DNA of 41,959 nt from a virus (IMGVR_UViG_3300032300_000481:1-41959); one strand, 5' to 3'; counted from the first letter of the stretch, positions 1,581-36,027 are shown. Translations and numbers: made by a program. The notes: generated by a model from the letters alone, not told the origin.

Positions 1581-2546
1581 TTAAATCTTTCTTTTAGAAA
1601 TAATTATATCTGTAGAACAATGACATTCTTTTTGCTCACAAATTTCAGGTTCAGTGGGCCATTGTATTAATTCGGATTGATTGACATTTCCTATAAATCT
1701 AGGATTTCCTTGCCTACAATTGGCTCTCTGTATCCTACCGTCGTAATGTATAAACAGACTTTCTAGTCCTATATCACATTCCCATCCTCGAAAATCGTTA
1801 AGTCCTGAATTGATAATATCAATAGTATCTGGACGGTCTGTCGTGGTTCCGTCATCCCAATGATAGTTACATCCCATCAATACCGGAGCCTTTCTTCTTT
1901 TTACGAATTTTAGTACAGCCCCAAAACTTAACTTTACAGACCTATGTGGATTTTCTAATATCCACTTATCCTGTTCGAGTGTATAATCTCTTCCTAGTGT
2001 ATTTCCTACACTCCAGTCTTGTAACCTTACAGCTTCAACACTGACGTCAGCTTGATTAACATAGTATTGATAAATTTCTACGCATCTGTCCCAGTAGCGA
2101 GTATCCATCATAACACGTACCGTTGTACTTGAATATTTGTTTGCCGCTTCAACTTTTTCTTTAAAATTAGGATCTTCAAAACTAGGATGAAAGCTAAAAC
2201 TAATTCCATTTATGTACGGACTGATCTCTTCATAGTACCGAGGGCTTCTAGCACCATTAGTGGTTACTGTGACTGTATTTCCTTTGTCGTGAAACATCTT
2301 AACTAATTCAGGTAAGTGAGGACTTAATGTAGGTTCTCCACCTGCGATACTGATGTTTATTTTTTTATGTCTTAACATTAGTTCATTGACAAACTTTTTG
2401 GCATTATCCCATTCATAATGATGATTTTTTCCATCATGTAGTCCTTTAGGACAATAACTACAGGCATTGGTACAGATATTGTTGATAACCCACGTTAACT
2501 GCATTACGTTGGGAACCTGGCTAATTCCTATTAGTTTCTTTGTCAT
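1581..2546 (-). CDS. Radical SAM protein with C-terminal Cys-rich auxiliary domain (type A)
   Basis: CTNACSYC, GGEPT and TTNG motifs; C-terminus WECDIG..C..CEQKECHCSTD. Confidence 0.9.
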   Translation of the reverse strand: MTKKLIGISQVPNVMQLTWVINNICTNACSYCPKGLHDGKNHHYEWDNAKKFVNELMLRHKKINISIAGGEPTLSPHLPELVKMFHDKGNTVTVTTNGARSPRYYEEISPYINGISFSFHPSFEDPNFKEKVEAANKYSSTTVRVMMDTRYWDRCVEIYQYYVNQADVSVEAVRLQDWSVGNTLGRDYTLEQDKWILENPHRSVKLSFGAVLKFVKRRKAPVLMGCNYHWDDGTTTDRPDTIDIINSGLNDFRGWECDIGLESLFIHYDGRIQRANCRQGNPRFIGNVNQSELIQWPTEPEICEQKECHCSTDIIISKRKI

Positions 2547-3898
2547 AATATGTCTTTAATAACACCACAGCGTGTTCTATTCCATACATCGTAGAAAGTT
2601 ACTTCAATCTCTGGATTTACTATATAAAGCTGTGATAGTATTTTGTATTGTTGTGCGTGACATTGATCATGTCCAAATATCATTTGTCCAGCATCGGTAC
2701 TGAATATGTTAGTTAAGTTCATCCATACTTTGTTGTAGTCTTGTATTATATCTAATAATCTAGTAGCATCCCTATACAAATCCACTTCTAAAAATTCAAC
2801 ATTTCTTTGTTTAAAATCTTGCCAATAAGTTATAAATGCTTCTTCATTCTCAAAGTGATTCCATAACTCATCTAAACCGTTTTGGAAACCTTGGTCTTCT
2901 GTAAAGGTTGAACTATGATGTCCAATCCATGTAAAATGATCACGATCTGGAAATTCTCTAATACAAGATAATAGATCATTATCCTTCCATTTGTGTAGAT
3001 GGTTGTACCATTTAAGAGCAACAGGATTAAAATCGTATATCAATATTTTTGTGTCAGCTGATACTCGTTGTGGCGTCTTAAATAAATCAAATAACTTAAA
3101 CCCACTAGCGGTGTTTACAACTAGATCGTATATTCCGTTGTTTCGAATATTCATATCTTCGGAGTTGAATAGCCATATTTGATCTTTAACAGATAGGCTA
3201 TCTCTAATCCATTTATCTTGATTCCAATTTTGTTCCGGAAAAGGTGTTAGTGTCTCTATACTGTTTAGGAATTGATCTGTATTATCTTCTGGGTAGATAT
3301 AAAATTTACTGAGTCTTAAACTTTCCGATAGTGTGATTATCGGCCATCTACCGTTCATCAGAGCAGACGCCAGTTTCCACCCTTGGCCTGCTCCTACTTG
3401 TTCTTTCAGTTCCCCGGTGGGTCTTATCCATAGCGGAGTATAGTCATGATGGAAGTTTTCTTCACTTCTCTCTATTACAGGCAGTAATTTAGGATTTTTG
3501 TCCCAATGACCAAACTCTGGCATACCTACTTCAGCCCATGCCTTTATATTAACGATAAAAAACTGATGATGTAATTCTAACCACCGATCGGGTTTACAAA
3601 GAGGATGTCCGGCAAACCCAAAATTGTTTTCGTTGATAAACTGATTGAGTTCGTTGACAAAATTATAATTACGGATCTGGCATCCAGCGGCGATGACTAC
3701 ACAATAATCAGATTGTTTATCTAATGCTTCTTTTAATATTTCATGTATTTGGTCTTTACATATGATCGTAAAAGGAGTTTGTCTACGTCTCTCGAGCCGC
3801 TCTAAATAAAAGAGACTAGCTCCTTTGGCTCTGATATACATTTTAGTATTCCTAATACGGTCACGTTGATTATATATTCCGTAAGAAATTTTAAGCAT
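2543..3898 (-). CDS. Unknown two-domain enzyme, paralog of 13849..15333 (possible GT-like N-domain plus SAM-binding-like C-domain)
   Basis: 451-aa ORF sharing the motifs LHHQFFIVN..W..G.PEF, DYTPLWI, ASGFK and YDFN with 13849..15333. Fold assignment is tentative. Confidence 0.6.
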   Translation of the reverse strand: MLKISYGIYNQRDRIRNTKMYIRAKGASLFYLERLERRRQTPFTIICKDQIHEILKEALDKQSDYCVVIAAGCQIRNYNFVNELNQFINENNFGFAGHPLCKPDRWLELHHQFFIVNIKAWAEVGMPEFGHWDKNPKLLPVIERSEENFHHDYTPLWIRPTGELKEQVGAGQGWKLASALMNGRWPIITLSESLRLSKFYIYPEDNTDQFLNSIETLTPFPEQNWNQDKWIRDSLSVKDQIWLFNSEDMNIRNNGIYDLVVNTASGFKLFDLFKTPQRVSADTKILIYDFNPVALKWYNHLHKWKDNDLLSCIREFPDRDHFTWIGHHSSTFTEDQGFQNGLDELWNHFENEEAFITYWQDFKQRNVEFLEVDLYRDATRLLDIIQDYNKVWMNLTNIFSTDAGQMIFGHDQCHAQQYKILSQLYIVNPEIEVTFYDVWNRTRCGVIKDIL

Positions 3899-4571
3899 TA
3901 TTTGTAAATCTTTCTATAGCTTGTTGTTTTAATTTTTGATTACCTGATCCGTGAACAATAAAATGATATCTATGTTCGTTAGATTGATTCCAAACAATAT
4001 GTTCATTACCAACATCTAACACAAACCCTTTACCTTGTTCGAAAGGCAACCGTCCCCATTTACGAAAATAAAAATCGCAGCCTTTAGGATTATTAATGGC
4101 GATATTCACTGGACCAAATTGTCTTCCTGAACCGTCTACGTGCGGCATTATGTATCCGCCCGCTGACAATTTCATAATACGAACACGATCATATCTTTCA
4201 TATCCTAATGATTTAATAAACTCTGAACAGGTAGGAAACATATCACACGCTTCTGTCCAGCGGTAGTTTGCTTCTTCTGCAGTTTTGTAACCATATTGAT
4301 CAAAGTGTTCTGTAAAGGTAGGACCAATTCCGTGTAATGTTAACGCAGCCCAACCTTCGTGATTGTAGCTAAAATGTCGATCTTTTTGCCTATGCCCTAC
4401 AAACATATGATCATTTGCTTGACATTCTTGATGCATTTTTTCAAAGTCTGCTGAAAATACCAAAGGAAACCAAGGCCAATCGGATTGATGTAAATTAGTA
4501 GGTATTGGAAGTTTAGGATACCATTGGTTAGTTAAACTTTCTTCTATAAATGATTCTAATATATCTTTCAT
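3891..4571 (-). CDS. 2OG-Fe(II) oxygenase, aspartyl/asparaginyl beta-hydroxylase-like
   Basis: RVRIMKLSAGGYIMPHVD (HxD) and distal HIVWNQSNEHRYH (His plus 2OG-binding Arg). Confidence 0.85.
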   Translation of the reverse strand: MKDILESFIEESLTNQWYPKLPIPTNLHQSDWPWFPLVFSADFEKMHQECQANDHMFVGHRQKDRHFSYNHEGWAALTLHGIGPTFTEHFDQYGYKTAEEANYRWTEACDMFPTCSEFIKSLGYERYDRVRIMKLSAGGYIMPHVDGSGRQFGPVNIAINNPKGCDFYFRKWGRLPFEQGKGFVLDVGNEHIVWNQSNEHRYHFIVHGSGNQKLKQQAIERFTNNA

Positions 4572-5548
4572 ACTATCTCAATGTCAATTGCCTGTTCTAT
4601 TTTTGAAAATACTTCTATGTTCCATTTTCTTCTTACTTCGCTATAAGGCACGACCCAATCTTCTGTATTGTTGTGGAATTTTAAAAAAGTGTCATCAAAT
4701 ACTACTGATCCTAAATAATATCTCCCCAAGGATAACGCTGATAAATCTCCTATCGGAACCTTAGATTTTAGATCAGGGGATAGTTCAGTATACCATTTCC
4801 AGAATCGAGACTCGGTAATTTTGTGTTGCGATCTATGATCGCAAAAATTTAACCAGGCTTCAGAACAAAATGTTTCTTGTAACTTAATTTGATTATTGGC
4901 GATTAATCTTATATCGTTGTCTAACATCGCATCTTTCCAATCTTTCCCTAAGGTGTTATATCCGAGATATAATTGTCCCCAACTGAAGTCAGTATCTAAG
5001 AATAATCTATCTTCTGGATTTATGGGATCACCTCTTTCAAAAGGATCATATTGAACTAGGCAACTAAAATGCGGAAAAAAACTAGGAGATAGGGCTGACT
5101 CTATAATATGTATATACTCATTGAGTTTTAACCATGCTCGATGAAAGTCTTCTTTAAAATATAATCCTGGCCATATATTTGGATCTCGGATCTCTCCCTG
5201 TTTAATTGGAAATGCGTTTTGGTGTCGTTCACCGTATAGCTCAAATTCTTCGTGTAAATGATTCAGTGCCTCGTCGGTAATTTCGGATACATTTCTAAAT
5301 AACGGTAACTGCTTGTCGTAGTATCGGTTTATCTTTTCGATGACCTCATTAATAGTGCTCATTAACTCGCCGAGATCTTTTGAAGTCTTGTTGCTAATTT
5401 TTAGTTCTAAGATATCCTTAGATTTTCGTCTGCGATTTACAATAGCTATCCATCGATCTAAAAGACTGGTAAATGCCAGCTTGTATCGTATTTTTAAAAT
5501 CTCTCCATTTTTTAATCTAAAGTGAAATATAGCATATCGTTGATTCAT
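4568..5548 (-). CDS. Hypothetical protein (326 aa)
   Basis: Long ORF heading a minus-strand unit, with TAAATA 5 nt upstream and an ATGA overlap with the next gene. His/Glu motifs LNHLHEEFE and LNEYIHIIES; no family recognised. Confidence 0.75.
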   Translation of the reverse strand: MNQRYAIFHFRLKNGEILKIRYKLAFTSLLDRWIAIVNRRRKSKDILELKISNKTSKDLGELMSTINEVIEKINRYYDKQLPLFRNVSEITDEALNHLHEEFELYGERHQNAFPIKQGEIRDPNIWPGLYFKEDFHRAWLKLNEYIHIIESALSPSFFPHFSCLVQYDPFERGDPINPEDRLFLDTDFSWGQLYLGYNTLGKDWKDAMLDNDIRLIANNQIKLQETFCSEAWLNFCDHRSQHKITESRFWKWYTELSPDLKSKVPIGDLSALSLGRYYLGSVVFDDTFLKFHNNTEDWVVPYSEVRRKWNIEVFSKIEQAIDIEIV

Positions 5549-5620: not shown

Positions 5621-6928
5621 ATGCTTAAACTTAAATTAATACAGAAACTTAAAAAAATCTATACAAGATATCGACTAGGATATGATCCTATCAAACCACA
5701 AATTAGCCCAACTGTGTGTGCTGTTCCTTGGATGCATTTAAATTTTGAACCAAATGGTAAAGTTGTTCCATGCTGCTTAACCTCCACTTATAACTACTTT
5801 GCAGGAGACCTTAATAAGGAACCTATTGGAGAAATATGGAATAGTAAAAATATGAAAATCCTCCGTAAGGAAATGATGTGCGGAAAAGAACCTGAAATAT
5901 GCCATAAATGTTTTGACAAAGAGAAAGTAACAGGAGAGAGCGGAAGAGTACACCACAACAGAGAATTCCCCCATGTAATTAAGTCTATCCCTAACCTAAC
6001 ATTAGATGATGGATCTGTCACAGAAATGAATTTAAGATATTGGGATTTCCGTTTTAGTAATCTTTGTAATTTTAAATGTCGCAGTTGCGGCCCTAGATAT
6101 AGTTCAGCGTGGGTCCCGGACGCTAAGAAGCTAGGATGGAGAATAGAAGATGAAAAGGTTACTGCTATAAACGGAATTGAAAATAACACCAATTATGATT
6201 TCTTAGAGGATCAGATAGGAGTCGTTGAAAAAATTTACTTTGCTGGAGGAGAGCCGTTGCTCATGCCCGAGCATTGGCAAATACTAGAACTATTAGTTAA
6301 ACACAAAAGATTTGATGTAAGGTTAAGTTATAATACCAACGTATCCACATTAAATTATGGCGGAAAGAATGTAATTGATTATTGGAAACAATGGAATTTT
6401 GGCAAACTAGAAGTTTGGCCAAGTATTGATGAAATAGGTCCTAGAGCAGAATTGATTAGATCCGGAACCGTTTGGTCAAAAGTAGAAAACAATCTAATAG
6501 AACTATCTAAACTAGATAACATTATCCTCAGACCGGGAATTACTGTCGGTGCTATGAATATTTTTAGGCTTCCTGAGATAATTGAATATCTAAAAGACAT
6601 AGGAGTGTTAAAACAAAAACACAACTATAATAATTTTTACCTTAATTTACTAGAGCAACCGAGTCATTATCATGTTCATATTTTAGACGATAAATTTAGA
6701 GAACAGACAATACTTAAATTAGAAACATGGATCGCTAAATTTAATTTAGAAAATAATACTGATATATCATCAAAATTTACACAAATGCTACATGAACTCA
6801 GGAAACCTAGAGATTTGCATTCTTTGAAAAGATTTTTTCAGGTAACTGAACAGATAGACGGGATAAGAAATGAAAACACTTATGAAATCATTCCCGAACT
6901 AAAAAAATTATTAGATAATGAAAAATAG
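5621..6928 (+). CDS. Radical SAM protein with N-terminal twitch/SPASM-like domain (type B)
   Basis: N-terminal CAVPW-..-VVPCC..CHKC, followed by CNFKCRSC, FAGGEP, YNTN and SID motifs. Confidence 0.9.
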   Translation: MLKLKLIQKLKKIYTRYRLGYDPIKPQISPTVCAVPWMHLNFEPNGKVVPCCLTSTYNYFAGDLNKEPIGEIWNSKNMKILRKEMMCGKEPEICHKCFDKEKVTGESGRVHHNREFPHVIKSIPNLTLDDGSVTEMNLRYWDFRFSNLCNFKCRSCGPRYSSAWVPDAKKLGWRIEDEKVTAINGIENNTNYDFLEDQIGVVEKIYFAGGEPLLMPEHWQILELLVKHKRFDVRLSYNTNVSTLNYGGKNVIDYWKQWNFGKLEVWPSIDEIGPRAELIRSGTVWSKVENNLIELSKLDNIILRPGITVGAMNIFRLPEIIEYLKDIGVLKQKHNYNNFYLNLLEQPSHYHVHILDDKFREQTILKLETWIAKFNLENNTDISSKFTQMLHELRKPRDLHSLKRFFQVTEQIDGIRNENTYEIIPELKKLLDNEK

Positions 6929-7751
6929 CTTAAATGTTGTTGTTAGTGCTCCTATAGATGTTTGGCCTTATAGTTACCCAGATAATCCTAAATCATCTAT
7001 ATTACAGTTTGTTGGCCCTGACAATGAAGAACTATATCAGCGTAATTTAAAGAATCTTTCCCAAGATTGGATTTATAGAACTAAACCTGTAAACTATTCC
7101 TTTAACAGTAACAAGTTAAGAATGAAAAAAGATATTAAAGACGTGGGCGATTCTTACATTTTGTTTAGCGGGACTAGTTATACAATGGGTGTAGGGATAG
7201 ATGAAGAGTCGAGATTCTCAGAGAAGGTTAGCGAACAAGCAGGTTTAGATTTTATAAACTTTTCTGGCCCAACATACAGTATCAAAGTTCAAGCAATTTC
7301 TTTTTTTAATTTATTAAAAACAAACTATAAACTACCTAAAGTATTAGTGATGGAATATGCTCCAGAGATAGGGTATACATTTTATAATAACGGAAACTTT
7401 GTTTGTACAAACACACCGTTCTTGAAGCACTTAGAAGGTCACGACAAAATTACTAATGTTTACAAGTCATTGCTTGATACAGATTTTTTTATCCAAGAAG
7501 CAACATTGTATAGGAATATGTTAATTGGCACGTGTAAACGATTAGGAATTAAATTTGTTGAGCTTTCATTTAACACAACTGATCAGTTTGTTATTGACAA
7601 TAACATTATGGCTATAGATAGTGAATATAAAGGACACAACATCAGTATGGAATTAGCAAGAGATGTTAGATTACACGACGGCAACTATTCAGCACATCCT
7701 GGAACTAGTATACATCAAGGTATATCATCTCAAATATTGAAATTACTATGA
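6918..7751 (+). CDS. SGNH-fold hydrolase/acyltransferase-like protein
   Basis: Block I-like ILFSGTSYTMGVG, FINFSG, and C-terminal ARD...AHPG. Confidence 0.55.
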   Translation: MKNSLNVVVSAPIDVWPYSYPDNPKSSILQFVGPDNEELYQRNLKNLSQDWIYRTKPVNYSFNSNKLRMKKDIKDVGDSYILFSGTSYTMGVGIDEESRFSEKVSEQAGLDFINFSGPTYSIKVQAISFFNLLKTNYKLPKVLVMEYAPEIGYTFYNNGNFVCTNTPFLKHLEGHDKITNVYKSLLDTDFFIQEATLYRNMLIGTCKRLGIKFVELSFNTTDQFVIDNNIMAIDSEYKGHNISMELARDVRLHDGNYSAHPGTSIHQGISSQILKLL

Positions 7752-8398
7752 GCTCACTCACACTCTTCACTTCGGGTAGTACTAAAGAACCTAAGGAAAT
7801 ATCACATCCATGGACCAGTATTGAATCTTGTATACTACGTTCAATACAAGAAATTGGATTATCAAATCACGATACAGTCTTAGATATATTTCCAGGCAAT
7901 GTAATCGCACATTATACAGTGACAGCGTTCCCCGCAAAATACAGTGGAGCAAAACTAATTTCTGCGAATTTTGATCCTTACACGTACATGAATTTGTTTA
8001 ACAAATATCGACCTACTTACATTGCTCTTATTCCAAGACATTACGAAATACTATCAAAGACAAAAGGATGGGATGAGTTAGATATGAGTTGTGTTCGCTA
8101 CATGGTTACTGGCAGTAGTAGTATCACCCAAGAAATGATAAATTCATTTAAAAGCAAAGGAGTACAAACAGTTGCTAACTGGTACGGTATGACAGAAATG
8201 CCACCTCCTGTTTTTCTAGGCTACGATTCTGAATCATTTGATTTCACTCCTAAAAAAGGATTTACTGTTGAGTTTACTGAACAAGGAGAGTGTATTATTA
8301 ATGGTATGAAGACCGGCGATGTTTTTAATTTAAAAACTAAAAAATTTATGTATAGACAAGGATCCGTAAATGGACAGACCTGGAAAACTCAAATATAA
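7748..8398 (+). CDS. Truncated AMP-binding (ANL adenylation) enzyme
   Basis: FTSGSTKEPK (A3), NWYGMTE (A5) and KTGD (A7). Only 216 aa; it lacks the N-terminal subdomain and the C-terminal lid. Confidence 0.75.
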   Translation: MSSLTLFTSGSTKEPKEISHPWTSIESCILRSIQEIGLSNHDTVLDIFPGNVIAHYTVTAFPAKYSGAKLISANFDPYTYMNLFNKYRPTYIALIPRHYEILSKTKGWDELDMSCVRYMVTGSSSITQEMINSFKSKGVQTVANWYGMTEMPPPVFLGYDSESFDFTPKKGFTVEFTEQGECIINGMKTGDVFNLKTKKFMYRQGSVNGQTWKTQI

Positions 8399-8942
8399 AC
8401 AGTTAACAGACATAGATATTCCAGCCATAGAAGATTTTTGTGAGCAGTGTAGAAAATTAGGTTGGCAAAATAATTCGTCTCTAGCTGCTATGAAGTTCGA
8501 TAAAGCCACATTCTTTGCAGGATTTGACGAAGACAAAATTGTATCTTTAGCGGGATGTCATCGATTACCCGAAGTTAACGAAAATGCTTGGAGATGTTTA
8601 TTTCGAGGGGCACAGCTCCCTGGATATACCCCAGAATGGAGCAGAAACATACTCAAAAGTGCAATAGGTGTTAGTCAACTGTTGTATATGCAAATAAAAT
8701 ATATACAGGAAATAGAAAATAATTACGAAATATTCATAAGCACAAATATAAATTCAGATACCGGTGGAAAAAGTTCTAGGATGAACAATGTAATAATGCC
8801 AATGGTAGCTAAACAGGGTTATTGGGACCTTTACCTAGAGAACTTTATGTTAAATAATGTTCTACAAAATATTTGGAAAGTTAATGTTCCTTGTTACATG
8901 TCAGCAAGAGAAGAGTGGCTATCTAGTATTTTGTTGAAATAG
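8370..8942 (+). CDS. Putative GNAT-like acyltransferase
   Basis: GNAT-like pattern YKQLTDIDIPAIEDF..FFAGFDEDKIVSLAG..RCLFRGAQLPGY. Assignment is tentative. Confidence 0.45.
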   Translation: MDRPGKLKYKQLTDIDIPAIEDFCEQCRKLGWQNNSSLAAMKFDKATFFAGFDEDKIVSLAGCHRLPEVNENAWRCLFRGAQLPGYTPEWSRNILKSAIGVSQLLYMQIKYIQEIENNYEIFISTNINSDTGGKSSRMNNVIMPMVAKQGYWDLYLENFMLNNVLQNIWKVNVPCYMSAREEWLSSILLK

Positions 8943-10141
8943 TTATTCTTAGACCACCAACTGTAGGGATAGTAAATTCCTGGATGCTTTCCAAATTCTA
9001 CATCTTCTAGCTTGCTTTTTTCGATTAATCCTTGTTTAGTATTAATACTCTTTTCTAAATTATTGTAATATTCCCAATATGGTGTATGATTATGTCCAGA
9101 TAGTGTGTAATGGCTTAGAATAAAATTATATAGTTCTAAACTAGTCTTTCTAAACGCCCTATTAAATGTTTCAAAACTTCTTCCTTCTGTTAAACATCTG
9201 TGTAGACCTAATACATTATAGGTTATCATCCATATACTACTAGCTTCGAGAGGTTCTATGAATCCACAACTCATACCGACAGTCGCTACATTTTTGTAAA
9301 ATGGGTCTTTGGCATATTCAGGCTTGAATTTAATTACTCTAAGTTTTTCTTTATTTGATTCTGGAAAATATGTTAAGTATTCTTGTATTGCTTCTTCGTC
9401 TGTACAATGTTTACTACTAAACACATAGCCGGCTCCTCTGCGAGATTTCAAAGCAATCTCCCACATCCATCCGTGATTCATAGTTCGAGTAATTGTATAT
9501 CTATTTTGTATAGGAGCGAGCTCTTGAGGACATGCCACTGCACTGTCATTAATTAAATGATCATACGGCAGATAGTTGATACCTACTTTTTTTGCCAAAA
9601 TTTTTGAAAATCCTGTAGCATCCACATATAAATCATAAGATTTTATTCCAGTGTTTCTTAATACCAAATAGTCGATAGATCCGTCGGGTGCTAGTATAAC
9701 ATCATCGACTGTGTCTATTATGTGTGTAGCATTATTTTTTAAAGCCACAGGTTTCATCACTATATTACCAAATTTTGAAGCATCAACATGATAAGCATAG
9801 TTACCAACTGATGGCATAGTGCCTTCCTCCATATGCCTAATTGCGTCGGCATCTTTAGTTCTATCATATGAAAACCAATGCCACCACGAATCTTTCCTAT
9901 CCTTGTGCCAACCATCGTGTCTGACACCTAGCTTATATTCTGCCTGACATAACGGCATCCACTCTTTTTCATCAAGACCTAAGTCATCACAAAATTTTTT
10001 AATTATAGGAAGTGTGCTTTCTCCAACACCTATAATCGGGATATCAGCGCTTTCAATTATAGTAACATTAAAATTTTGGCTAAGATATGCTGCTGCCATC
10101 CATCCTGCAGTTCCTCCTCCGACTATCAGTATATTTTTCAT
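8894..10141 (-). CDS. Tryptophan halogenase family flavin-dependent enzyme
   Basis: IVGGGTAGWMAA (FAD binding), IGVGESTLP, YKLG (Lys at the catalytic-lysine position), YAYHVDA, DATGF, GWMWEIAL (WxWxI) and GFIEPLEAS. Confidence 0.88.
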   Translation of the reverse strand: MKNILIVGGGTAGWMAAAYLSQNFNVTIIESADIPIIGVGESTLPIIKKFCDDLGLDEKEWMPLCQAEYKLGVRHDGWHKDRKDSWWHWFSYDRTKDADAIRHMEEGTMPSVGNYAYHVDASKFGNIVMKPVALKNNATHIIDTVDDVILAPDGSIDYLVLRNTGIKSYDLYVDATGFSKILAKKVGINYLPYDHLINDSAVACPQELAPIQNRYTITRTMNHGWMWEIALKSRRGAGYVFSSKHCTDEEAIQEYLTYFPESNKEKLRVIKFKPEYAKDPFYKNVATVGMSCGFIEPLEASSIWMITYNVLGLHRCLTEGRSFETFNRAFRKTSLELYNFILSHYTLSGHNHTPYWEYYNNLEKSINTKQGLIEKSKLEDVEFGKHPGIYYPYSWWSKNNYFNKILDSHSSLADM

Positions 10142-12387: not shown

Positions 12388-12388
12388 T

Positions 12389-27062: not shown

Positions 27063-27283
27063 ATTTTGTTTTGATCGTATATCAAAATAATGCTAGAGTT
27101 GCAAGGATACCTTGCAACTTCTTAATGGAGCCACATATAGAGAGCGGAATCCTAAGTCATTTTATTTGTGCAAATGAAGATAGTTCAAATTTTTATACCT
27201 CTTTTGAAATAGAATATCAAGGGAGCATAATTGATAGAAAAGATTTTAATACCTATCTCAAAAATATGCAATCAATTTATTGA
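27041..27283 (+). CDS. Hypothetical protein (80 aa)
   Basis: AAGGA RBS before the ATG; the ORF fills the remaining gap. Confidence 0.55.
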   Translation: MYTISDLNFVLIVYQNNARVARIPCNFLMEPHIESGILSHFICANEDSSNFYTSFEIEYQGSIIDRKDFNTYLKNMQSIY

Positions 27284-27952: not shown

Positions 27953-28850
27953 TGTTGCGCCTCATAGTCCACTCTATTTGTTGGGTAGCTTGATTATATT
28001 GATCTTGGAATAATTCTACTACATACTTGCTAACCTGTTCGTCTAACAATGGTACTGAGAATGAAAAATCTTTTTCTAATCTGTGCCCGTAATCTAGAAT
28101 TGCTTCCTGTACATTGAGATTCTTAACTTCTTTCCATATGTTATCGAGATAAGCAAAATCTCGGACGTCTATGTAATTCCACTCAGTGCAGTTGGCCTTC
28201 CAACATCCGTGCCTAGCACCTAAAATAGCCCAATGACCATTTTCTACATGTCCACCAATACTACACCATGCCTTTAATCGGTGTAGATTATGCCAGAATA
28301 GTTTTGAAGGCATAGGGTCAACAGGCAATACACCATCCACTAAACTCATTTTTACGCCTTCGCGAAATCCTGCCCTCCATGCTTGGTACGGACTAGCATT
28401 GGGATATGTGACTGAGTAGCTGTGAACCATAGGCCTATAACCGTCCTCCCAACAAAAATCTACCTGTCCTTTTGGATCAGAAGATTCTTCGTGTGTTTTC
28501 ATACCAAGAACAAAGTCTTTTTTCCATACTTTCAAACTACCATTGCCGTATCGCAAACCGTTGATTATATTGACCCCGGGCCAACTAAATGCTTTTGACC
28601 CCACAGGAACATCGATGATTTGATCAAAGAATTTGATGTCAACAATGTTGTCGGCATCTACAGTAATAAACCAATCTGTTTCACTTAACGCCGCTGCTGC
28701 CTGATGGCATTCATTTGATCCTTTAACTCCGTGGACACGTTTGGTCCACATACATTTGTCTAATAGGTCAACCCAGTGTTTTTCAGCATTGGGTTCGTCA
28801 TAGCTGATAAAAATACAATCTAGTTCTGATATAGTTAATTGTTCAGTCAT
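27945..28850 (-). CDS. GT-A fold glycosyltransferase-like protein
   Basis: FISYDEPNA..HGVKG..FITVDAD (DxD)..YGNGSLKVW..WRAGFREGVKM. Confidence 0.7.
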   Translation of the reverse strand: MTEQLTISELDCIFISYDEPNAEKHWVDLLDKCMWTKRVHGVKGSNECHQAAAALSETDWFITVDADNIVDIKFFDQIIDVPVGSKAFSWPGVNIINGLRYGNGSLKVWKKDFVLGMKTHEESSDPKGQVDFCWEDGYRPMVHSYSVTYPNASPYQAWRAGFREGVKMSLVDGVLPVDPMPSKLFWHNLHRLKAWCSIGGHVENGHWAILGARHGCWKANCTEWNYIDVRDFAYLDNIWKEVKNLNVQEAILDYGHRLEKDFSFSVPLLDEQVSKYVVELFQDQYNQATQQIEWTMRRNSV

Positions 28851-29400
28851 ATTTTCTATTTCCCCATACGCTGATTTTTTTGTTGACAGCGCAGTCTAAT
28901 TTATAAGTTTTATCTATCGCTAATTGATATAGGTCAATCGTGTGTTTTGAAATTAATTCATTAGGGTTATTATAGCATGTTATATACAAATTGAACAACT
29001 TATTCTTTTCGTTTACCATAGAATCAAATTTAAATTTATATTTGTCATCTAGATCTTCTGGATCGAACTCAAATACCACTCCTTCATTATCAATTTCATA
29101 TCTTATATCTAGATAATCGAAAAATACTACCCTATGGTGTAAATCTCTAATACTTTGATCAGATAGAATATTACGAGGAAATTCTAAATTAGAACTTCTA
29201 AACTTAAATTCAGCATATCCGTTAACTACTATTACGATATAATCTCTTAATATCTTTTTATGTGTTAGAAAATCGTATCCATCTTTTTCTCTGGCCAAGC
29301 AGTTTCCCATCCCTTCCGGAATTATATCAAATGGGCTACCACCGATGGCTGTAGCGAAACTGGTTTCTAGATCATATAGGACATGAAAATCATGACTCAT
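28843..29400 (-). CDS. Hypothetical protein (185 aa)
   Basis: ORF overlaps both neighbours within the minus-strand operon. Confidence 0.7.
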   Translation of the reverse strand: MSHDFHVLYDLETSFATAIGGSPFDIIPEGMGNCLAREKDGYDFLTHKKILRDYIVIVVNGYAEFKFRSSNLEFPRNILSDQSIRDLHHRVVFFDYLDIRYEIDNEGVVFEFDPEDLDDKYKFKFDSMVNEKNKLFNLYITCYNNPNELISKHTIDLYQLAIDKTYKLDCAVNKKISVWGNRKYD

Positions 29401-30220
29401 AAGCAGACTCTAGTGTTTTTATAATATCGCTTGTGATAATATTTTTATCAACATAATGTAATAGTTCTGTCTGTTGCCACACTCCGAGTTTTATCTGTCC
29501 TTGCTGATCTAAAGAAAATCTTATTTTTTCAGTCCAGTCAACTAGGTATTCTTTCCATCCCTGAACCAATGGTTTCATGTGAGTAATTCTCGGAAAGTCC
29601 CATTCAGAATAAACTGCTTGATCTTCTAATCCCAATATACATAGAGATAACGCAAATGCTTCGTCTGTTGGAATATTATTAAGACCTAGACTCGGCAGGA
29701 ACTTTTTTATAAATGGATCCGGGTTATCAGTCATCAATTTAACTAATTCAAAAAATTCTTCAGACTGCTTTGACTTTCGAAAATATGTCCAGGCATTATA
29801 AACATCTGGTAGATCGTAATCAACAAACACCTTTCTATAGTGTCCGTAACTGAAAGATTTTCCTTTATAATTTTGAGGACTAGAAGTTATGAATAGATCA
29901 AGGTGTTCGACTTGATTCCAATAGTGATCCATTGGCTTTAAAAATAACATATCTGAATCTAGCAACACAGTTCTTTGATAGGGACTGAGTTCATAGGCTC
30001 TCGACCTACAATCCATTCCTATAGGTCCTGTATATTCTATGATATTGTCAAATATTTGAATCTTATCATCAAACTTATGTTTGACGTTTGTAACAACTGT
30101 GACATTGTTATATCCGTCCGGCTGTGTTAGTTTGATCGTAAGAGCACAGGCATAGGCCAAAATAGAATAATCTACTTCACTATTATCAATGGCAAATAAT
30201 AGATATCCTTTATCTTTCAT
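29390..30220 (-). CDS. GT-A fold glycosyltransferase-like protein (GT8/nucleotide-diphospho-sugar transferase-like)
   Basis: GYLLFA..AYELSPYQRTVLLDSDMLF (DxD)..TDEAF..HMKP. Confidence 0.7.
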   Translation of the reverse strand: MKDKGYLLFAIDNSEVDYSILAYACALTIKLTQPDGYNNVTVVTNVKHKFDDKIQIFDNIIEYTGPIGMDCRSRAYELSPYQRTVLLDSDMLFLKPMDHYWNQVEHLDLFITSSPQNYKGKSFSYGHYRKVFVDYDLPDVYNAWTYFRKSKQSEEFFELVKLMTDNPDPFIKKFLPSLGLNNIPTDEAFALSLCILGLEDQAVYSEWDFPRITHMKPLVQGWKEYLVDWTEKIRFSLDQQGQIKLGVWQQTELLHYVDKNIITSDIIKTLESAYES

Positions 30221-31067
30221 AGTCGGCTAGTTTTAAAAGTTGATCAAGATTCTTTAATAGGCTGGATTTATTCATTATGTGGACGTCCTGCTGAGAAGAT
30301 CGAGCCAATATATGCTTGTCTTGTTTTTCTGCTAAAAAGATTATATCTCCGTTGTCTTTGATTTTTAGTATTTCGCATCGGTCATCAAAAAACAAAGGGA
30401 CAGGTAGTTCTTTATGCCATGGATCTACCCCATGTCCGCTCATTATATGACATGCTATACTGAATACAAAATCATTACGAAATTGTCCAGGATGAAACTC
30501 ATATAGATTTGAATAGTAATAATATTCTTGTTTGATAAACTCTACGAGATTAAAGAATAATTTCGTTTCATTGTTTTTACTAAAGATGATATTTGTGGCC
30601 CAGACCATATCTATACTGTATGGTCCTACCTTATGTTCTTTAGGATTGGTAGTATCATCTTGTAACAACAACATTCCCGGGGTGATAAAAAAATCGTCAC
30701 TATTCCAATACTTTGAAAGGTTATCAGTAAACACTAAAAAATCTGTGTCAATGACTAGTGTCCTGTCATACGGTGTTAACTCATAAGCGGAATGTCTATT
30801 GCCATTTAAAAAGTTGAATACTTTATAATCTTTGCTTTCTTGGTCATAAAGTCGTCTTTGATTGGTGTTATTTGGTTTTTCAATTTCTATTACTTTATCA
30901 AACGGAAGATATGTAAACTTCGAATTGATGTCGTTTATTGTTTCTTTGTCGGAAACTAAACTAACAGGAATATGGAGATATTTTCTTACCAGCGCAGCAG
31001 CAAGTACCGCTTGGGACCCATAATCTATATTTCCATTGTGTGCGAATAACAAACATCCGTTTTTCAT
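30210..31067 (-). CDS. GT-A fold glycosyltransferase-like protein, paralog of 29390..30220
   Basis: GCLLFA..AYELTPYDRTLVIDTDFLV (DxD)..RNDFVFS..HIMNK. Confidence 0.7.
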   Translation of the reverse strand: MKNGCLLFAHNGNIDYGSQAVLAAALVRKYLHIPVSLVSDKETINDINSKFTYLPFDKVIEIEKPNNTNQRRLYDQESKDYKVFNFLNGNRHSAYELTPYDRTLVIDTDFLVFTDNLSKYWNSDDFFITPGMLLLQDDTTNPKEHKVGPYSIDMVWATNIIFSKNNETKLFFNLVEFIKQEYYYYSNLYEFHPGQFRNDFVFSIACHIMSGHGVDPWHKELPVPLFFDDRCEILKIKDNGDIIFLAEKQDKHILARSSQQDVHIMNKSSLLKNLDQLLKLADYER

Positions 31068-31414
31068 AGATCGATTAGGCTCTTTACAGATCGTTTTTTC
31101 TTCAGAGACTCGAAATCAACGTAATATTGTTTGGTTATAGAAAAATATCTATCGATGGCTTCTTTTTGGAATTTAACGATATCTTCTATGAGTACAGGAG
31201 TTAACTTATCGTCTAGTATTGTAATAGCACCGGTACCTTCCTCTGGTACTATTAGATTTAAGAAAAGAAGAAAATTTCTATCTAGAAGGAATCGACCACC
31301 GTTGTGGTAGAACAATAGATCAGATTTGAGTTTTTCTTGAAGCCTCTTTTTTTCGAGGTAAGCGGTATATTTAAAATTTGAAAACTCTAAAGCTTTCTCT
31401 AATCTCTCATCCAT
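31064..31414 (-). CDS. Hypothetical protein (116 aa)
   Basis: GAGGA RBS and an ATGA overlap with the first glycosyltransferase gene. Confidence 0.75.
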   Translation of the reverse strand: MDERLEKALEFSNFKYTAYLEKKRLQEKLKSDLLFYHNGGRFLLDRNFLLFLNLIVPEEGTGAITILDDKLTPVLIEDIVKFQKEAIDRYFSITKQYYVDFESLKKKRSVKSLIDL

Positions 31415-31473: not shown

Positions 31474-32589
31474 TTAAACTGCAGAAAATGTAGTAAATGC
31501 GGTTAGCGTCACACTTGAAGGTTGCACTCCTATAACAGCGCCTGTTGATCTTTTTTGAAACACCGCATATCCAGCACCGTCGGTCACGGTATCTTCTGTA
31601 CTAGCACCAATCGGAACATGCCCGTCTCGGAAAGTGACTTTAAATAATATATAATTGTTAAATTTTTGTGCTGAGATAGTGATAGTATTAAGATTATACG
31701 GTGCGTTCCCATCTTCTACCTGATACCATTGGAACGGTATAGGTCCTATTCTAGAAAATTCTGTCCTAGTAAATCTAACAGAAGTATTAACAAAGACTGT
31801 GGTTAAAAGTTGAATCCATGCGGCATCTTGAGCGGTTATGTATCTTGGCCCAATTCCCCCAAAAGATATTTCTCCCCCTGAGTTGAAGAAAAATTGCATT
31901 TCATTAGCAGAATTGAATGTGACATATGCGATATTTTGTATACCTTTATTTCCAATTCCACCCCAAGAATACGGAACAGTTCTACTTGCTACAGCTGGAT
32001 CCAGGGTCAATTGGGCAGCGTTTACTAAATTCCTTGTCAATGTTAGATTATCAATCACAGTGTTTAATTCTGAGAGATTGCTTACCGAGACTTTTCCACT
32101 TATAGTGCTATATCCGACAAAATTGGCATTAGTTTGATGCTTGTTGATAGCATTGACATCATCTTCTAAATTTTGCCATTGCTGCTGTGTTATAAGTATG
32201 TTGCTATTATAATATAAAGCTACCTGAGATCCGGAAGAGACAATACTGGTAGTAGAGTTGCTGATAGATATAGTCCGGGTGGCTGTATTAATGGCAGTTA
32301 CTGTGGTATTACTTACCACACCAGTGACGTTGACTATTTTTCCTATCTTGGCACCGGTTATACGAGATAATGTAAGACTATAGGAACCTGTTGAAACATC
32401 TCCGTTTACCCTAGAAGTAGAATAATCTCTCGTGTTGTCAACAGGGCTAGATAACAGAGTAGCACCATATCCATAATCTGGATTACTAGTTCCTGCGCCA
32501 TAGGGATATCCATCTCCTAATACCGTTCGTACCTTAATCTGAACAGCATTGTAATCTGATGAATAAATTTGTGTGCCAACTGATGCCAT
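31474..32589 (-). CDS. Putative virion structural protein, paralog of the N-terminal half of 33006..34943
   Basis: S/T/G/N-rich. Shares MASVG..Y.SDYNAVQIKVR.VLGDGYPYG, QQW.NL, HQTNA, EMQ.FFN.G and F.DGHV with 33006..34943. Confidence 0.7.
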   Translation of the reverse strand: MASVGTQIYSSDYNAVQIKVRTVLGDGYPYGAGTSNPDYGYGATLLSSPVDNTRDYSTSRVNGDVSTGSYSLTLSRITGAKIGKIVNVTGVVSNTTVTAINTATRTISISNSTTSIVSSGSQVALYYNSNILITQQQWQNLEDDVNAINKHQTNANFVGYSTISGKVSVSNLSELNTVIDNLTLTRNLVNAAQLTLDPAVASRTVPYSWGGIGNKGIQNIAYVTFNSANEMQFFFNSGGEISFGGIGPRYITAQDAAWIQLLTTVFVNTSVRFTRTEFSRIGPIPFQWYQVEDGNAPYNLNTITISAQKFNNYILFKVTFRDGHVPIGASTEDTVTDGAGYAVFQKRSTGAVIGVQPSSVTLTAFTTFSAV

Positions 32590-32598
32590 AACGTATCC

Positions 32599-33009
32599 TT
32601 AGAAAGAAACTTTAGGATTATCTAGATCTACAAGTGTCCAAGTAGCATCGCCGTTTTCGTTGGTAATTTCTTGATTAACTGACACCCTATATGTGTCTAC
32701 TATCTGTTGACTGATATCTAACACTAATTTTTTCATATCATCTTCTGTGTCACATGCGGTGTGCATGCCAGTTAACGGATTAAACACTTGATATTTTTCG
32801 TTCATTGTAATTATACTCCCATTTGCTCTAACATATATTTCCGATTCTTTTTGTTTATTAAGCCACCATGCCCAAAGAGATTGATTATTTCTTTTTAAAA
32901 AATCAACAGCTTGATCATATTCAATATTGACAATATTGTGTTCAAATATATAGCGATACATATCTAATGGTGTGTTGATCGCTTGTAAAAATTCTCTAGT
33001 TAAAATCAT
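32599..33009 (-). CDS. Hypothetical protein (136 aa)
   Basis: ATGA overlap with the upstream structural gene and a GGAG RBS. Confidence 0.7.
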   Translation of the reverse strand: MILTREFLQAINTPLDMYRYIFEHNIVNIEYDQAVDFLKRNNQSLWAWWLNKQKESEIYVRANGSIITMNEKYQVFNPLTGMHTACDTEDDMKKLVLDISQQIVDTYRVSVNQEITNENGDATWTLVDLDNPKVSF

Positions 33010-34943
33010 GATACATCTCCTGCCACCCGACCACCTCCGGGAGCTCCCCCTACCCAGGTTACAGTCCCACCCCGTGTGTTCACAGCTTTTCCTCCAACAC
33101 CACCTGCAGATCCGCCCACTCCGTTATAGGACCCTGCCCCACCAGCTGCTCCCCAAGAGCCGCCACCGCCTGTAGCTATCGAGCCCGGAGTACCTGCGGT
33201 AGAGGAGCCATTGCCACCGGCATTAGAAACACCTGTTGGCACGAGACTTCCCCCAGATCCGCCGGTAGCTGAAAGATTGCTTAATGGACCACCCCATATT
33301 CCGCCGGAACCTCCGGCGCTACCACCAAATCCTGACGTCAAAGTTGTTCCACTAGGTCCAGATAGATTATTAGCTGCTAACGCTACCCTTCCGCCACCGC
33401 CTCCGGACGGTGCTGATGCCCCACTACCGCCGTTCTGTCCTGATGCTCCTGGCAACACAAGAGCAAATGTAGCATTAGTAGAAGTTCCTGCCGGAGATAT
33501 TGCTATAGCGTTAGCTAGATACTCTGCACTGCTGTAGCCAGCCCCACCTCGTCCACCGCCAGCACCTCCACCTCCCCCGCCAATATGGTAATCACTAGAA
33601 TTTACTGTTCCATATCCTGCTGCTCCACCGCCACCACCACCACCCAAAACATATCCGTTAGTGTTATTGATAGTGATCCCACCAGTCGATCCGTTTGTAT
33701 CGATTGCTAGTCCCCCGGCCTGTCCTGTATTCGTATTTCCGCTTTCATCTGGAAGTACAGCACCGCCATTGCCTCCCTTGCCCATTATGTATCCACTATT
33801 GGTTACACTTATCGAGCCACCACGGCCACCCATACTGAGAAAACTTAACCCAGCAACAGTGCGATCATTAGACCAAAGGTATACATTACCGCCTACAGTT
33901 ATTGCGGCATTTACGTTCGCCGGATTTCCTCCGTGTGCAACTACCATATAATATAAATTATAATTCTGTATATTTTTTGTGATAGAATGTGTGAAAGCGA
34001 GGCCGGTGGTATCGTATTGCGGAATTGGACCCGGATTAGCCCCTGTAAATCCGCCTTGTTTGGTTTGACTACTTAATGTAAATTGGCCAGCATATGCATC
34101 GGGCTGTATACCGGTAAATGCTCCGCTCGATCTAGTCCAACTGATCTCATACCCTGCTCCGAAGGCCACAAAATCTGCGGGACTTCCTCCCTTTGCCACG
34201 TGACCGTCTGTGAATCTTAGCCTAAAAGCTAAAAAATTCTCAAAGCGTATCGCAGATACCTGCACGGTATTATCTGCGTATGTGGCATTAGCAGAAGTGT
34301 AACTAGCGATCTGAGTCATAGCAGTGGTACTCATGCTGGAAAATACATTTAAATCTATATTCAGTGTTACATCGGCCAGTAGTGTGTTCCAGGAAGTATC
34401 TTGCGAAGTAGCAGTTCCAGGTCCTATCCCTTGTATGCTAATGAGGCTGCCTTGATTGAAAAAATATTGCATTTCTGCATTAGATTTAAAGTAAACATGA
34501 GCGAAACTGGTTACATATGAATTGCCTTGCCCCCATACTGCGCCCACAGTAACTCGGCCGGTGGAAGGGACAGGATCCTGTGTTCGCTGAGCGGCATTTA
34601 CTGCGTTCTTGTTGGCCAAAATGTTATCAGCGTATCCATCTAATGTGTTAAGATCAATGTAACTAATATTACTCTGTAAACTAACAGATATTCCAGCATT
34701 AGTTTGATGTCTATAGGCTTTGTCCACATCTGTAACTAAGTTAAGCCACTGTTGGTCGTCGACCAGGTCACTGGGATTCACCAGGCTGGATGCCATCGTC
34801 TGTCCCCATCCATATCTTGCGTTGGTAGTTCCAATGGCATTCGTCATAGGACCATAGGGATAGCCGTCTCCTAGTACCTGCCTTACTTTGATCTGTACTG
34901 CGTTATAATCTGATCCGTAAACGATCGAACCTACACTGGCCAT
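33006..34943 (-). CDS. Putative tail adhesin with C-terminal glycine-rich gp38-like domain
   Basis: GYIMGKGGNGG..GGLAI..ITINNTNGYVLGGGGGGG..GGKAV..VTW resembles the T-even gp38 polyglycine adhesin pattern. GGAG RBS. Confidence 0.7.
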   Translation of the reverse strand: MASVGSIVYGSDYNAVQIKVRQVLGDGYPYGPMTNAIGTTNARYGWGQTMASSLVNPSDLVDDQQWLNLVTDVDKAYRHQTNAGISVSLQSNISYIDLNTLDGYADNILANKNAVNAAQRTQDPVPSTGRVTVGAVWGQGNSYVTSFAHVYFKSNAEMQYFFNQGSLISIQGIGPGTATSQDTSWNTLLADVTLNIDLNVFSSMSTTAMTQIASYTSANATYADNTVQVSAIRFENFLAFRLRFTDGHVAKGGSPADFVAFGAGYEISWTRSSGAFTGIQPDAYAGQFTLSSQTKQGGFTGANPGPIPQYDTTGLAFTHSITKNIQNYNLYYMVVAHGGNPANVNAAITVGGNVYLWSNDRTVAGLSFLSMGGRGGSISVTNSGYIMGKGGNGGAVLPDESGNTNTGQAGGLAIDTNGSTGGITINNTNGYVLGGGGGGGAAGYGTVNSSDYHIGGGGGGAGGGRGGAGYSSAEYLANAIAISPAGTSTNATFALVLPGASGQNGGSGASAPSGGGGGRVALAANNLSGPSGTTLTSGFGGSAGGSGGIWGGPLSNLSATGGSGGSLVPTGVSNAGGNGSSTAGTPGSIATGGGGSWGAAGGAGSYNGVGGSAGGVGGKAVNTRGGTVTWVGGAPGGGRVAGDVS

Positions 34944-34971: not shown

Positions 34972-35298
34972 TTAGATTCTAAAGCTCTCACCGCAGCCAC
35001 AACGATCTCGTTCATTAGGATTGACAAAATCAAAACCTTCGTTGAGTCCATTTCTTCTATAATCTACTGTCATTCCGTTGAGGTAAACTTCGTGTTTAGC
35101 ATCAACGATAACTAAAAATTTATTTTGAGCGTAGTTTATAGTTCCGGGTTCGTCCCGGTATTCGTCCACATATTCTAAAACATAGGCCAGTCCACTACAT
35201 CCTGTGGTTTTTACACCAATCCTGATACCCACTCCGCGCCCTCGTTTTTCAATGCTTTGTAGAATTTTACGAGCCGCTTGCTCTGTTATCGTGATCAT
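34972..35298 (-). CDS. iscA: Iron-sulfur cluster A-type carrier IscA
   Basis: MITITEQAA..GIRIGVKTTGCSGLAYVLEYVD..GLNEGFDFVNPN..CGCGESF. True start is ATG 35298, not 35430. Confidence 0.92.
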   Translation of the reverse strand: MITITEQAARKILQSIEKRGRGVGIRIGVKTTGCSGLAYVLEYVDEYRDEPGTINYAQNKFLVIVDAKHEVYLNGMTVDYRRNGLNEGFDFVNPNERDRCGCGESFRI

Positions 35299-35303
35299 GT
35301 TAG

Positions 35304-35320
35304 TATTTAAGCTATAAATA
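35304..35320. promoter_or_regulatory. Compact bidirectional element TATTTA-AGCTA-TAAATA
   Basis: Minus-strand TAAATA 5 nt from the iscA ATG; plus-strand TATAAATA 7 nt from the iscU ATG. Confidence 0.7.
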
Positions 35321-35327
35321 GTAGACA

Positions 35328-35711
35328 ATGGCATATTCAGATAAAGTAATCGATCACTACGAAAATCCACGCAATGTTGGGTCGTTCCCAAAAGACGAGG
35401 AAGGTATCGGCACAGGTATGGTGGGAGCACCAGCCTGCGGTGATGTAATGAAACTACAAATAAAGGTAGACAAAGATGGTATTATTAGAGATGCTCGTTT
35501 CAAGACATATGGATGCGGATCTGCAATCGCTTCCTCCTCGCTGGTCACAGAGTGGGTCAAGGGCATGCACATCGATCAAGCGGCAGTTCTTAAAAACAGT
35601 GACATCGCCGAGGAGTTGGTTCTTCCGCCTGTTAAAATACACTGTTCAATACTGGCAGAAGACGCCATCAAAGCCGCAATAGCAGACTATAAGACAAAAA
35701 ATGAATATTGA
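35328..35711 (+). CDS. iscU: Fe-S cluster scaffold IscU
   Basis: [35 protein letters not shown] and LPPVKIHCS. Confidence 0.97.
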
Positions 35712-36027
35712 AATAACTGAAAACTGTACCGCCAAAGTACAGGACCTCATCGCAGAAGAAAACAATCCGGATTTAAAACTCCGAGTATTTGTACAAGGCG
35801 GCGGCTGTTCCGGAATGAGTTATGGATTTACTTTTGACGAAGTTGTTAACGAAGATGATTTCGAAATCGAACGTGGCGGAGTACGATTCCTGATAGATTC
35901 GATAAGCAGTCAATACCTAACTGATTCCAAAATTGATTATGTAGATGATCTCCACGGATCCCAATTTGTTATCCAAAATCCAAACGCACAAACTACTTGC
36001 GGGTGTGGCAGTAGCTTTTCAATCTGA
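35701..36027 (+). CDS. erpA: Iron-sulfur cluster insertion protein ErpA
   Basis: [47 protein letters not shown]. Confidence 0.92.

Follow-up and report, generated by a model that had tools for sequence, protein, structure and literature searches.

A two-module radical SAM and glycosyltransferase island in a jumbo-phage fragment: a candidate pathway for virion glycosylation

Why would a virus carry eight radical S-adenosylmethionine (SAM) genes beside its virion-type genes? The question is raised by IMGVR_UViG_3300032300_000481 (record G000), a 42-kb virus fragment (41,959 nt, G+C about 33-44%) that was analysed over its whole length and is called the window here. Its proteins include a T4-type DNA ligase, translation initiation factor IF-1, a cell-wall hydrolase and serine/threonine/glycine (S/T/G)-rich proteins. 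Considering that genome records of its relatives reach 356-364 kb, the window is a piece of a jumbo phage. Its genes were numbered g1-g51, and g4-g41 overlap or abut, with intergenic gaps below 75 nt. We divided this island into two modules. Module A consists of virion-type genes, g38, two genes like those of glycosyltransferase family 8 (GT8), g35 and two genes of GT-A fold with a DxD motif. Module B (g30-g4) is a 25-kb block of eight radical SAM genes, eight AspH-type 2-oxoglutarate (2OG)/Fe hydroxylase domains, a halogenase and helper genes. We propose, with an even chance of being right, that they make up a soluble, cytoplasmic late pathway that glycosylates tail-region virion proteins and edits their sugars. 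Module A taken by itself is probably a virion glycosylation system, whereas the case that module B edits the same glycan is about evenly balanced.

A transferase core behind virion-type genes

Gene order around g34 was surveyed in 147 IMG/VR loci with a full g34, taken from the best 80 + 80 hits and therefore biased toward nearer lineages. Counts were made on non-redundant loci (90%) with at least 4.2 kb upstream (53 loci) or 4.5 kb downstream (50 loci). In 52 of the 53 phage loci, g38, g37 and g36 stood in this order ahead of g34 and behind a gene of the g39/ORF355 family. A g33-family gene came next after g34 in all 50 downstream loci and a radical SAM gene lay within four genes in 45, while in more distant genomes the radical SAM gene directly followed g34 and g33 was relocated. 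Upstream of the core in the relative G001, proteins matched baseplate wedge, gp25, tail collar/fibre and virion PHROGs. The variable genes downstream of the core, of which 73 representative proteins were scanned, encode uridine diphosphate (UDP)-sugar dehydrogenases, epimerases, B12 radical SAM enzymes, 2OG oxygenases and methyltransferases. The commonest family there, A5, appeared GT10/GT47-like by a motif, and this candidate was dropped as neither Pfam nor PDB gave a match. With about 4,600 IMG/VR stretches estimated to carry the g33/g34 motif, the core is a frequent feature of aquatic jumbo phages.

When g37 and g34 were searched by tblastn against 50,697 phage records, Ralstonia phage RsoM2USA was the sole match. 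Its ORF355-347 encode, in order, a g39-family protein, g38, g37, g36, g35, g34, an N-twitch radical SAM enzyme, g33 and g29. This minimal core lies two genes from the tail tube and beside an epimerase and the tail sheath; tube and sheath are virion proteins (PMC8504454), and the available parts of that paper do not discuss the core genes. Just downstream are about 35 tandem paralogues of ~200 aa (ORF301-336, 342 and 344; L081:3618-29703), annotated as hypothetical, with a common MKLxEI start, divergent middles and an F(D/E)LQDWLIxNGF-like end.

The g36/g37 profile matched glycogenin (GT8) along a stretch of about 100 residues (E 3e-4 to 2e-3), with no Pfam GT8 match, and D107, D109 and the C-terminal H263 are invariant in this family. 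The g33/g34 family matched no Pfam, PHROG or NCBIfam entry; D65 and D67 of its DxD motif were invariant in 23 sequences. Residues 4-150 of the g34 model form a GT-A-type fold (Z about 10, root-mean-square deviation about 3 Å over about 135 residues), with PBCV-1 A64R and STIV A197 among the tied fold matches. Judged from their gene neighbourhoods, g33 and g34 are likely sugar-transferring enzymes. Orthologues of g33 often have extra N-terminal units of ~105 aa, 0 to 6 in 62 loci when estimated from length, which fusions to other domains can inflate. One orthologue of 973 aa contains seven aligned repeats, all without DxD, and in L044:9934-12855 and other orthologues decayed N-half repeats precede an intact transferase domain. 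These repeats could serve as a ruler or a multivalent binder. Fusions of the g33-type domain to radical SAM occur in phage L048 (642 aa) and in Bdellovibrionota (L233:8840-10744 and L234:10004-13663).

Among the virion-type genes, a domain of RsoM2USA ORF355 recurs in g39 and in the N-terminal half of g41, and g41 has a weak tail-fibre PHROG match (E 2e-4). The best Atlas match of the g39 family (0.80) is a lead only. A tblastn search of one g39-family member against cultured phages gave no match, and complex prediction of g39 with g38 scored 0.00. A suspected resemblance of g38 to DUF4376-type fibre chaperones was not supported by Pfam or PDB. At the end of the window, g51 (40767-41957) is a fibre-like protein with tandem TSTFAQSFNTATLV-like repeats, cut by the contig end.

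Both promoter observations of an earlier sequence-only reading of this DNA were confirmed, namely TAAATA at the unit heads and a sigma70 promoter at the DNA ligase. The motif stands 7-28 nt upstream of all nine unit heads in 1581-36027 (g7, g8, g19, g20, g30, g31, g41, g42 and g43), where 0.011 per head is expected; for g30 and g42 this presupposes a start codon further downstream. The ligase promoter is a TG-extended TTGACA-17-TATACT. In G001, which carries a late sigma gene, TAAATA precedes 13 of 27 structural-PHROG genes, compared with 1 of 15 genes for replication or nucleotide functions (Fisher p 0.007, a hand tally that also counts operon-internal genes). Because the motif marks structural rather than replication genes there, the island is likely expressed late in infection, with the transferases in one operon with structural-type genes under a motif-inferred late promoter. 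Two back-to-back motifs drive iscA and iscU divergently, a layout also seen at g7/g8, g19/g20 and g30/g31. In a hydropathy scan of g4-g41 no 19-residue segment reached 1.8, and all island proteins look soluble, without a membrane segment.

The radical SAM block and its bacterial counterparts

All eight radical SAM genes (g4, g8, g20, g24, g26, g27, g28 and g30) have CxxxCxxC and match PF04055. The curated 170-bit cut-off of NCBIfam NF033640 (N_Twi_rSAM, N-terminal twitch) was passed by g8, g20 and g26, while g27, g28 and g30 remained below it. The other five reached no family cut-off, and none of the eight reached that of a peptide-maturase family. BtrN and NeoN are twitch-bearing radical SAM enzymes that act on sugars or cyclitols of aminoglycosides. 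Their twitch is C-terminal, in contrast with the N-terminal one of g8, g20 and g26. For these three the evidence supports membership of NF033640, a sequence family without a stated reaction, rather than BtrN/NeoN orthology, and the parallel drawn in the sequence-only reading is a chemical precedent.

The AspH-type domains are spread over seven genes (g6, g13 twice, g15, g16, g17, g19 and g25). Five of these genes matched PF05118; g16 was assigned by its BLAST similarity to the paralogues g13/g17 and g25 by its HxD motif alone. The enzymes weakly resemble LpxO. Family searches of the window proteins also verified iscA, iscU, erpA-like and epimerase genes, and together with the motifs they uphold the earlier counts, including the halogenase and four GT-A genes (g33, g34, g36 and g37). 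The helper genes fared unevenly: the adenylation protein g10 was borne out by PF00501, the kinase g21 and phosphatase g14 gave weak signals, and g29, g9 and g11, for which nothing passed in family and PDB searches, are assigned by motif only.

In the g18 model (pLDDT 92), the N-half resembles GT-A folds (Z 8-9.4) and the C-half resembles 6ULO (Z 9.8) and, at Z 8.3, the C-terminal methyltransferase part of OvoA. As g5 and g18 are paralogues modelled GT-A-like, they bring the block two GT-fold domains beyond those already listed. The g18 and g29 profiles matched nothing in the PDB, and Foldseek gave no g18 match at E 0.001. The g18 family is virus-dominated (173 homologues; Atlas clusters 70-100% viral). 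Across 29 non-redundant g18 loci, mostly in the gene order of the window, g19, g20 and g21 were present in all 29, g11 in 28, g24 in 26, g13 and g27 in 25, g10, g15, g22, g23 and g26 in 24 and the halogenase in 19. Homologues of g7 were found in phage and bacterial blocks.

Linkage of the two modules was counted over nine lineages, after three near-identical pairs were merged and G221, with no core in its fragment, was dropped. Module B starts at most about 8 kb from the core in four of them (G215/216, G217, G218 and G219/222). In G215 and G217, g33 directly precedes g30, and in G212 and G214 a distant module B opens with its own double g33/g34 protein; with two more loci headed in this way, g33 is a shared entry point between modules A and B. 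IF-1 is encoded just ahead of g30 in 8 of 16 related loci, and its gene marks the usual insertion site of module B. The sequence-only reading had also credited the island with its own iron-sulfur (Fe-S) supply, which did not survive the comparison. Of 13 large records, nine have iscU, 13-49 kb from the nearest module; the isc genes adjoin the island only in two near relatives, and no iscU was found in the RsoM2USA genome. They plausibly serve the island enzymes, as available parts of PMC5332604 suggest for marine phages, but lie outside any conserved island.

A GTDB scan gave 73 loci, from which L188, L189, L191-L193, L201 and L227, which carry virion-type genes, were excluded as phage contigs in metagenome-assembled genomes. 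Bdellovibrionota contigs hold homologues of g30, g27, g26, g33 and g29 (32-55% identity; 42-46% for g26 and about 50% for g30 orthologues) amid housekeeping genes, and the module B core g33-g30-g29-g27-g26 is thus also found in their chromosomes. Among 201 Bdellovibrionota genomes, g30 was present in 9, g33/g34 in 11 and both in 8, counts that include the seed genome and kin that are not independent. In G156, a single 2.9-Mb contig, a block with nine radical SAM genes lies beside four GT2-like genes and a GT-C gene, and in G058 the block adjoins an O-antigen-type cluster; other sugar genes lie beside it in five of nine genomes examined. In KSB1, Photorhabdus, Pedobacter and Micromonospora, g33 occurs among GT2/GT4 genes, and one cellular homologue neighbours Wzm/Wzt-type ABC genes and a DegT aminotransferase. 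These neighbourhoods support sugar chemistry. A g30 tree built from 21 of the 105 homologues, those left by de-duplication at 82%, keeps the phage and bacterial sets apart; its outgroups are too long to settle root and donor. An ErpA/IscA-like gene lies about 8 kb from the G156 block (L260:9756). In Photorhabdus, L222:8771-16288 runs GT4, g33, GT2, GT2, nucleotidyltransferase and ABC/HlyD exporter, with a radical SAM/SPASM gene upstream, and perhaps makes a glycosylated exported product.

Table 1. Genes and promoter elements of the island and its surroundings (window positions)
Feature	Position	Strand	Basis or remark
g4 radical SAM	1581..2546	-	PF04055 E 2e-13; CxxxCxxC; g4/g24/g28/g30 paralogue set
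g5 predicted GT-A-like + methyltransferase-like	2543..3898	-	24% to g18, E 6e-24
g6 AspH-type 2OG/Fe hydroxylase	3891..4571	-	PF05118 E 3e-10
g7 conserved protein without assigned function	4568..5548	-	head of unit g7-g4; TAAATA 5554-5559
g8 N-terminal-twitch radical SAM	5621..6928	+	NF033640 364 bits; TAAATA 5610-5615
g9 SGNH-like	6918..7751	+	motif only (GTSYT, HP)
g10 short adenylation-domain protein, 216 aa	7748..8398	+	PF00501 AMP-binding E 1.5e-16
g11 GNAT-like	8370..8942	+	by eye only
g12 flavin-dependent halogenase family	8894..10141	-	PF04820 E 1e-87; GxGxxG, WxWxI
g13 double AspH-type hydroxylase	10138..11325	-	PF05118, two stretches
g14 PTP/DSP-like phosphatase	11313..11822	-	CxxGxxRS motif; one homologue DSPc E 5e-5
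g15, g16, g17 AspH-type hydroxylases	11737..13847	-	
g18 predicted GT-A-like N-domain + methyltransferase-like C-domain	13849..15333	-	no DxD
g19 AspH-type hydroxylase	15320..16054	-	unit head; TAAATA 16056-16061
g20 N-terminal-twitch radical SAM	16095..17093	+	unit head; NF033640 235 bits; TAAATA 16082-16087
g21 short APH-type kinase	17035..17541	+	weak: APH E 2e-4; HGDxxxxN
g22 + g23 paralogous pair	17486..19865	+	weak Kelch/propeller signal
g24 radical SAM	19832..20743	-	PF04055
g25 AspH-type	20740..21387	-	HxD motif
g26 N-terminal-twitch radical SAM	21387..22817	-	NF033640 389 bits
g27 + g28 radical SAM	22789..24781	-	PF04055
g29 probable methyltransferase	24778..25371	-	motif only; orthologue beside core in RsoM2USA
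g30 radical SAM, head of module B	25362..26345	-	likely start 26324; TAAATA 26329-26334
g31, g32 no assigned function	26382..27283	+	lineage-specific spacer unit; TAAATA 26368-26373
g33 DxD GT-A-fold family	27272..27952	-	accompanies module A or B; in bacterial glycan clusters
g34 DxD GT-A-fold enzyme, helical C-domain	27945..28850	-	g33 paralogue; model pLDDT 90
g35 no assigned function	28843..29400	-	position conserved
g36 + g37 GT8 (glycogenin-like) pair	29390..31067	-	DxD and H invariant; glycogenin profile match
g38 conserved 116-aa protein	31064..31414	-	no family
g39, g40, g41 S/T/G-rich virion-type genes	31474..34943	-	unit head TAAATA 34966-34971
iscA-like (likely start 35298), iscU, erpA-like	34972..36027	-, +, +	divergent TAAATA pair 35304-35320
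Sigma70-type promoter of DNA ligase	36028..36056	+	11/12 match with TG; outer edge of late region
IF-1 gene	37412-37630		
g49 NDP-sugar epimerase/dehydratase	38244..39053	+	PF01370 E 1e-36; no TAAATA head

A proposed pathway and its alternatives

In the proposed pathway, nucleoside diphosphate (NDP)-sugars from the host or the phage (g49; UDP-sugar dehydrogenases and epimerases in relatives) would be the donors. The GT8 pair g37/g36 would transfer the first sugar and may prime a hydroxyl residue as glycogenin does, g34/g33 would extend the chain, and module B would act as an exchangeable tailoring cassette entered via the g33 transferase. Its radical SAM enzymes would act on sugar carbons, which they would oxidise, epimerise or rearrange; methyl groups would be added by g29 and the C-domains of g5/g18; an acyl group would be activated, attached and trimmed by g10/g11/g9; and the AspH-type enzymes and halogenase would hydroxylate and halogenate the acyl substituent or the carrier protein. 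IscA/IscU/ErpA would help to load up to three Fe-S clusters per enzyme. The virion-decoration pathway of the sequence-only reading has thus gained from the late-type motif, the soluble enzymes, the position of the core behind virion genes and the sugar-pathway neighbours, while its target is something we infer. More tentatively, an aquatic jumbo phage clade may coat its tail appendages with a hypermodified glycan by glycogenin-like priming, elongation by the new family and cassette editing. The g33 repeat number might then set chain length, cassettes might be swapped with Bdellovibrionota surface-glycan loci, and a chemically diversified host-recognition or shielding layer might result. If the proposal is true, the N-twitch radical SAM family would gain a function, the Fe-S assembly genes in such phages would be explained, and a phage surface would be varied by chemistry instead of protein sequence. 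With a cultured minimal-core phage and bacterial chromosomes that carry the tailoring block, the question is testable.

Several results weigh against this proposal. Module B lies 95-130 kb from the core in five of the nine lineages (G210, G211, G212, G213 and G214/220), and in G210 and G211 it has no g33 of its own. Of the closest 80 g30 loci, 29 had 6 kb upstream and 16 of these were non-redundant; none of the 16 had a GT8 gene in reach and two had g33. Module A was present in 12 of the 13 large records and N-twitch genes in all 13, but this co-occurrence says little because module A may be a clade core. As such, the ~30 kb of the sequence-only reading is not one conserved unit, the radical SAM block often being about 100 kb from the core. 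The neighbourhood comparison across large phages, set beforehand as the refutation test, came out divided: the order of transferase core and virion genes held almost throughout, and linkage of module B held in a minority of lineages. The module B core is chromosomal in Bdellovibrionota, and therefore its chemistry needs no virion; moreover, four of the nine genomes examined there had no further recognised transferases nearby. At the enzyme level, fold comparison of g34 scores transferases and nucleotidyltransferases alike, MobA and IspD being examples of the latter (Z about 10), the GT-like domain of g18 lacks DxD, and the transferases of the jumbo phage XacN1 show no homology to the window core. 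The g39-family profile matched no PHROG or PDB entry, so that the virion role of g39 rests on neighbourhood and family.

Considering the distances between the modules, A and B might be separate and adjacent by chance, A glycosylating the virion and B making or editing another product, such as a diffusible glycoside or an acylated, halogenated small molecule that lysis would set free, or else a metabolite resembling a cofactor. RsoM2USA and G001, which have A with little or no B, agree with this, as do the tight internal order of B around g19-g21 and its genes for adenylation, a halogenase and a kinase, which are characteristic of small-molecule clusters. We nevertheless regard it as unlikely: B is under TAAATA, g33 opens it in several lineages and bacteria, two GT-fold fusions lie inside it, and it has no scaffold synthase or exporter. 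Somewhat less likely still is that the enzymes alter the host envelope through cytoplasmic O-chain or lipopolysaccharide precursors and exclude other phages or predators. PMC7029224, in the parts available, puts this forward for islands rich in GT8 genes that lie among tail-fibre genes. The bacterial versions beside GT2, GT-C (PMT_2) and O-antigen-type genes and the likeness to LpxO would fit as well, but the phage island has no flippase, polymerase or initiating transferase, Pfam matched no membrane transferase or lipid-carrier enzyme there, and the lack of membrane segments, unlike in the bacterial loci, argues against host O-chain work. A late promoter also fits particle assembly better than exclusion, and the core is firmly tied to virion genes.

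Peptides are frequent substrates of SPASM/twitch enzymes, as proteins are of AspH, and the late motif and virion neighbours would fit equally if the radical SAM and AspH-type enzymes modified virion proteins directly by cross-links, hydroxylation or methylation, with glycosylation secondary or absent. This seems improbable, as no peptide-maturase cut-off was reached, bacterial orthologues cluster with sugar genes and six GT-fold domains would be left unexplained. For ribosomally synthesized and post-translationally modified peptides the same maturase result applies, with open reading frames of 60 aa and longer screened and intergenic gaps of <75 nt. DNA modification by phage GT-A enzymes and 2OG oxygenases is known from other systems, and in G001 a distance of about 13 kb separates QueE and FolE genes from the core; even so, hypermodification of phage DNA or RNA by the island appears marginally the least probable of these alternatives. 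The late motif, the tail-operon position and bacterial orthologues in envelope-glycan contexts do not suit it, and five large relatives showed TGT in none, one weak QueC and one canonical-scoring full-length thymidylate synthase. A Pfam search of the window found no hydroxymethylase, TET/JBP or TGT-like insertion enzyme, the TET and HMUDK searches having been run without a positive control. The FolE and QueE genes of G001 lie at L160:3181-7346, and most large genomes searched gave no QueC or TGT match. Far from its core, G001 has a second sugar cluster (L166:2528-11757; HldE-like, two epimerases and a 2OG oxygenase) with TAAATA heads beside uvsX/uvsY, and a carbamoyltransferase lies between primase and helicase.

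Comparison with known systems

To our knowledge, none of the virus-encoded virion glycosylation systems compared below involves radical SAM, halogenase or hydroxylase tailoring. The literature searched, which left most subscription papers uncovered, held no characterisation of the core, of N-twitch enzymes in phages or of a link to Bdellovibrionota. The island is real and widespread, and its chemistry is uncharacterised in that literature, as the sequence-only reading had supposed; it is not a first sighting, since similar islands are already in print without a function.

Mycobacteriophages have capsid and tail-tube glycans (Freeman 2023 as cited in PMC12619734), and XacN1 has Schiff-positive virion proteins (PMC5852040). 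As in the window, soluble virus-encoded GT-A enzymes lie near structural genes in mycobacteriophages, XacN1 and the viruses of PBCV-1 A64R and STIV A197, a likeness without demonstrated sequence homology. XacN1 is in one clade with RsoM2USA (PMC8504454), and its transferase cluster is at a matching place, after the baseplate wedge and a giant gene. Moraphages have four core transferase groups (PMC12619734). In cyanophage S-SCSM2R, 13 transferases and one radical SAM gene have been interpreted as serving host or DNA modification (PMC12801897).

Campylobacter phages CP220/CPt10 (PMC2853527) and the marine TARA_ERS488813_N000010 (PMC5332604) have 11-12 radical SAM genes per genome. Like the window, they show an exchangeable module, with Fe-S assembly genes in the marine genomes, and g30 is only 23% identical to a CP21 protein; the available parts of both papers do not connect these genes with glycosyltransferases or virion genes.

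The host recognition cluster of pelagimyophages and cyanomyophages, proposed to modify the host O-chain, is likewise a large variable island in the structural region of T4-like aquatic phages, and also holds tail fibres, GT8, radical SAM cassettes and AspH-type genes (PMC7029224, in the parts available). It belongs to another phage clade and is non-syntenic, whereas the window has an invariant six-gene core and a conserved block; the pelagimyophage transferases are set apart from this core by description, not by sequence. The window lacks the cluster markers vrlC and gp14, and the G001 core sits at an analogous place after the baseplate genes. To these systems the window adds a full core next to a full tailoring block, the division of the island into two modules, the fold of g5/g18 and a cultured phage that carries the minimal core.

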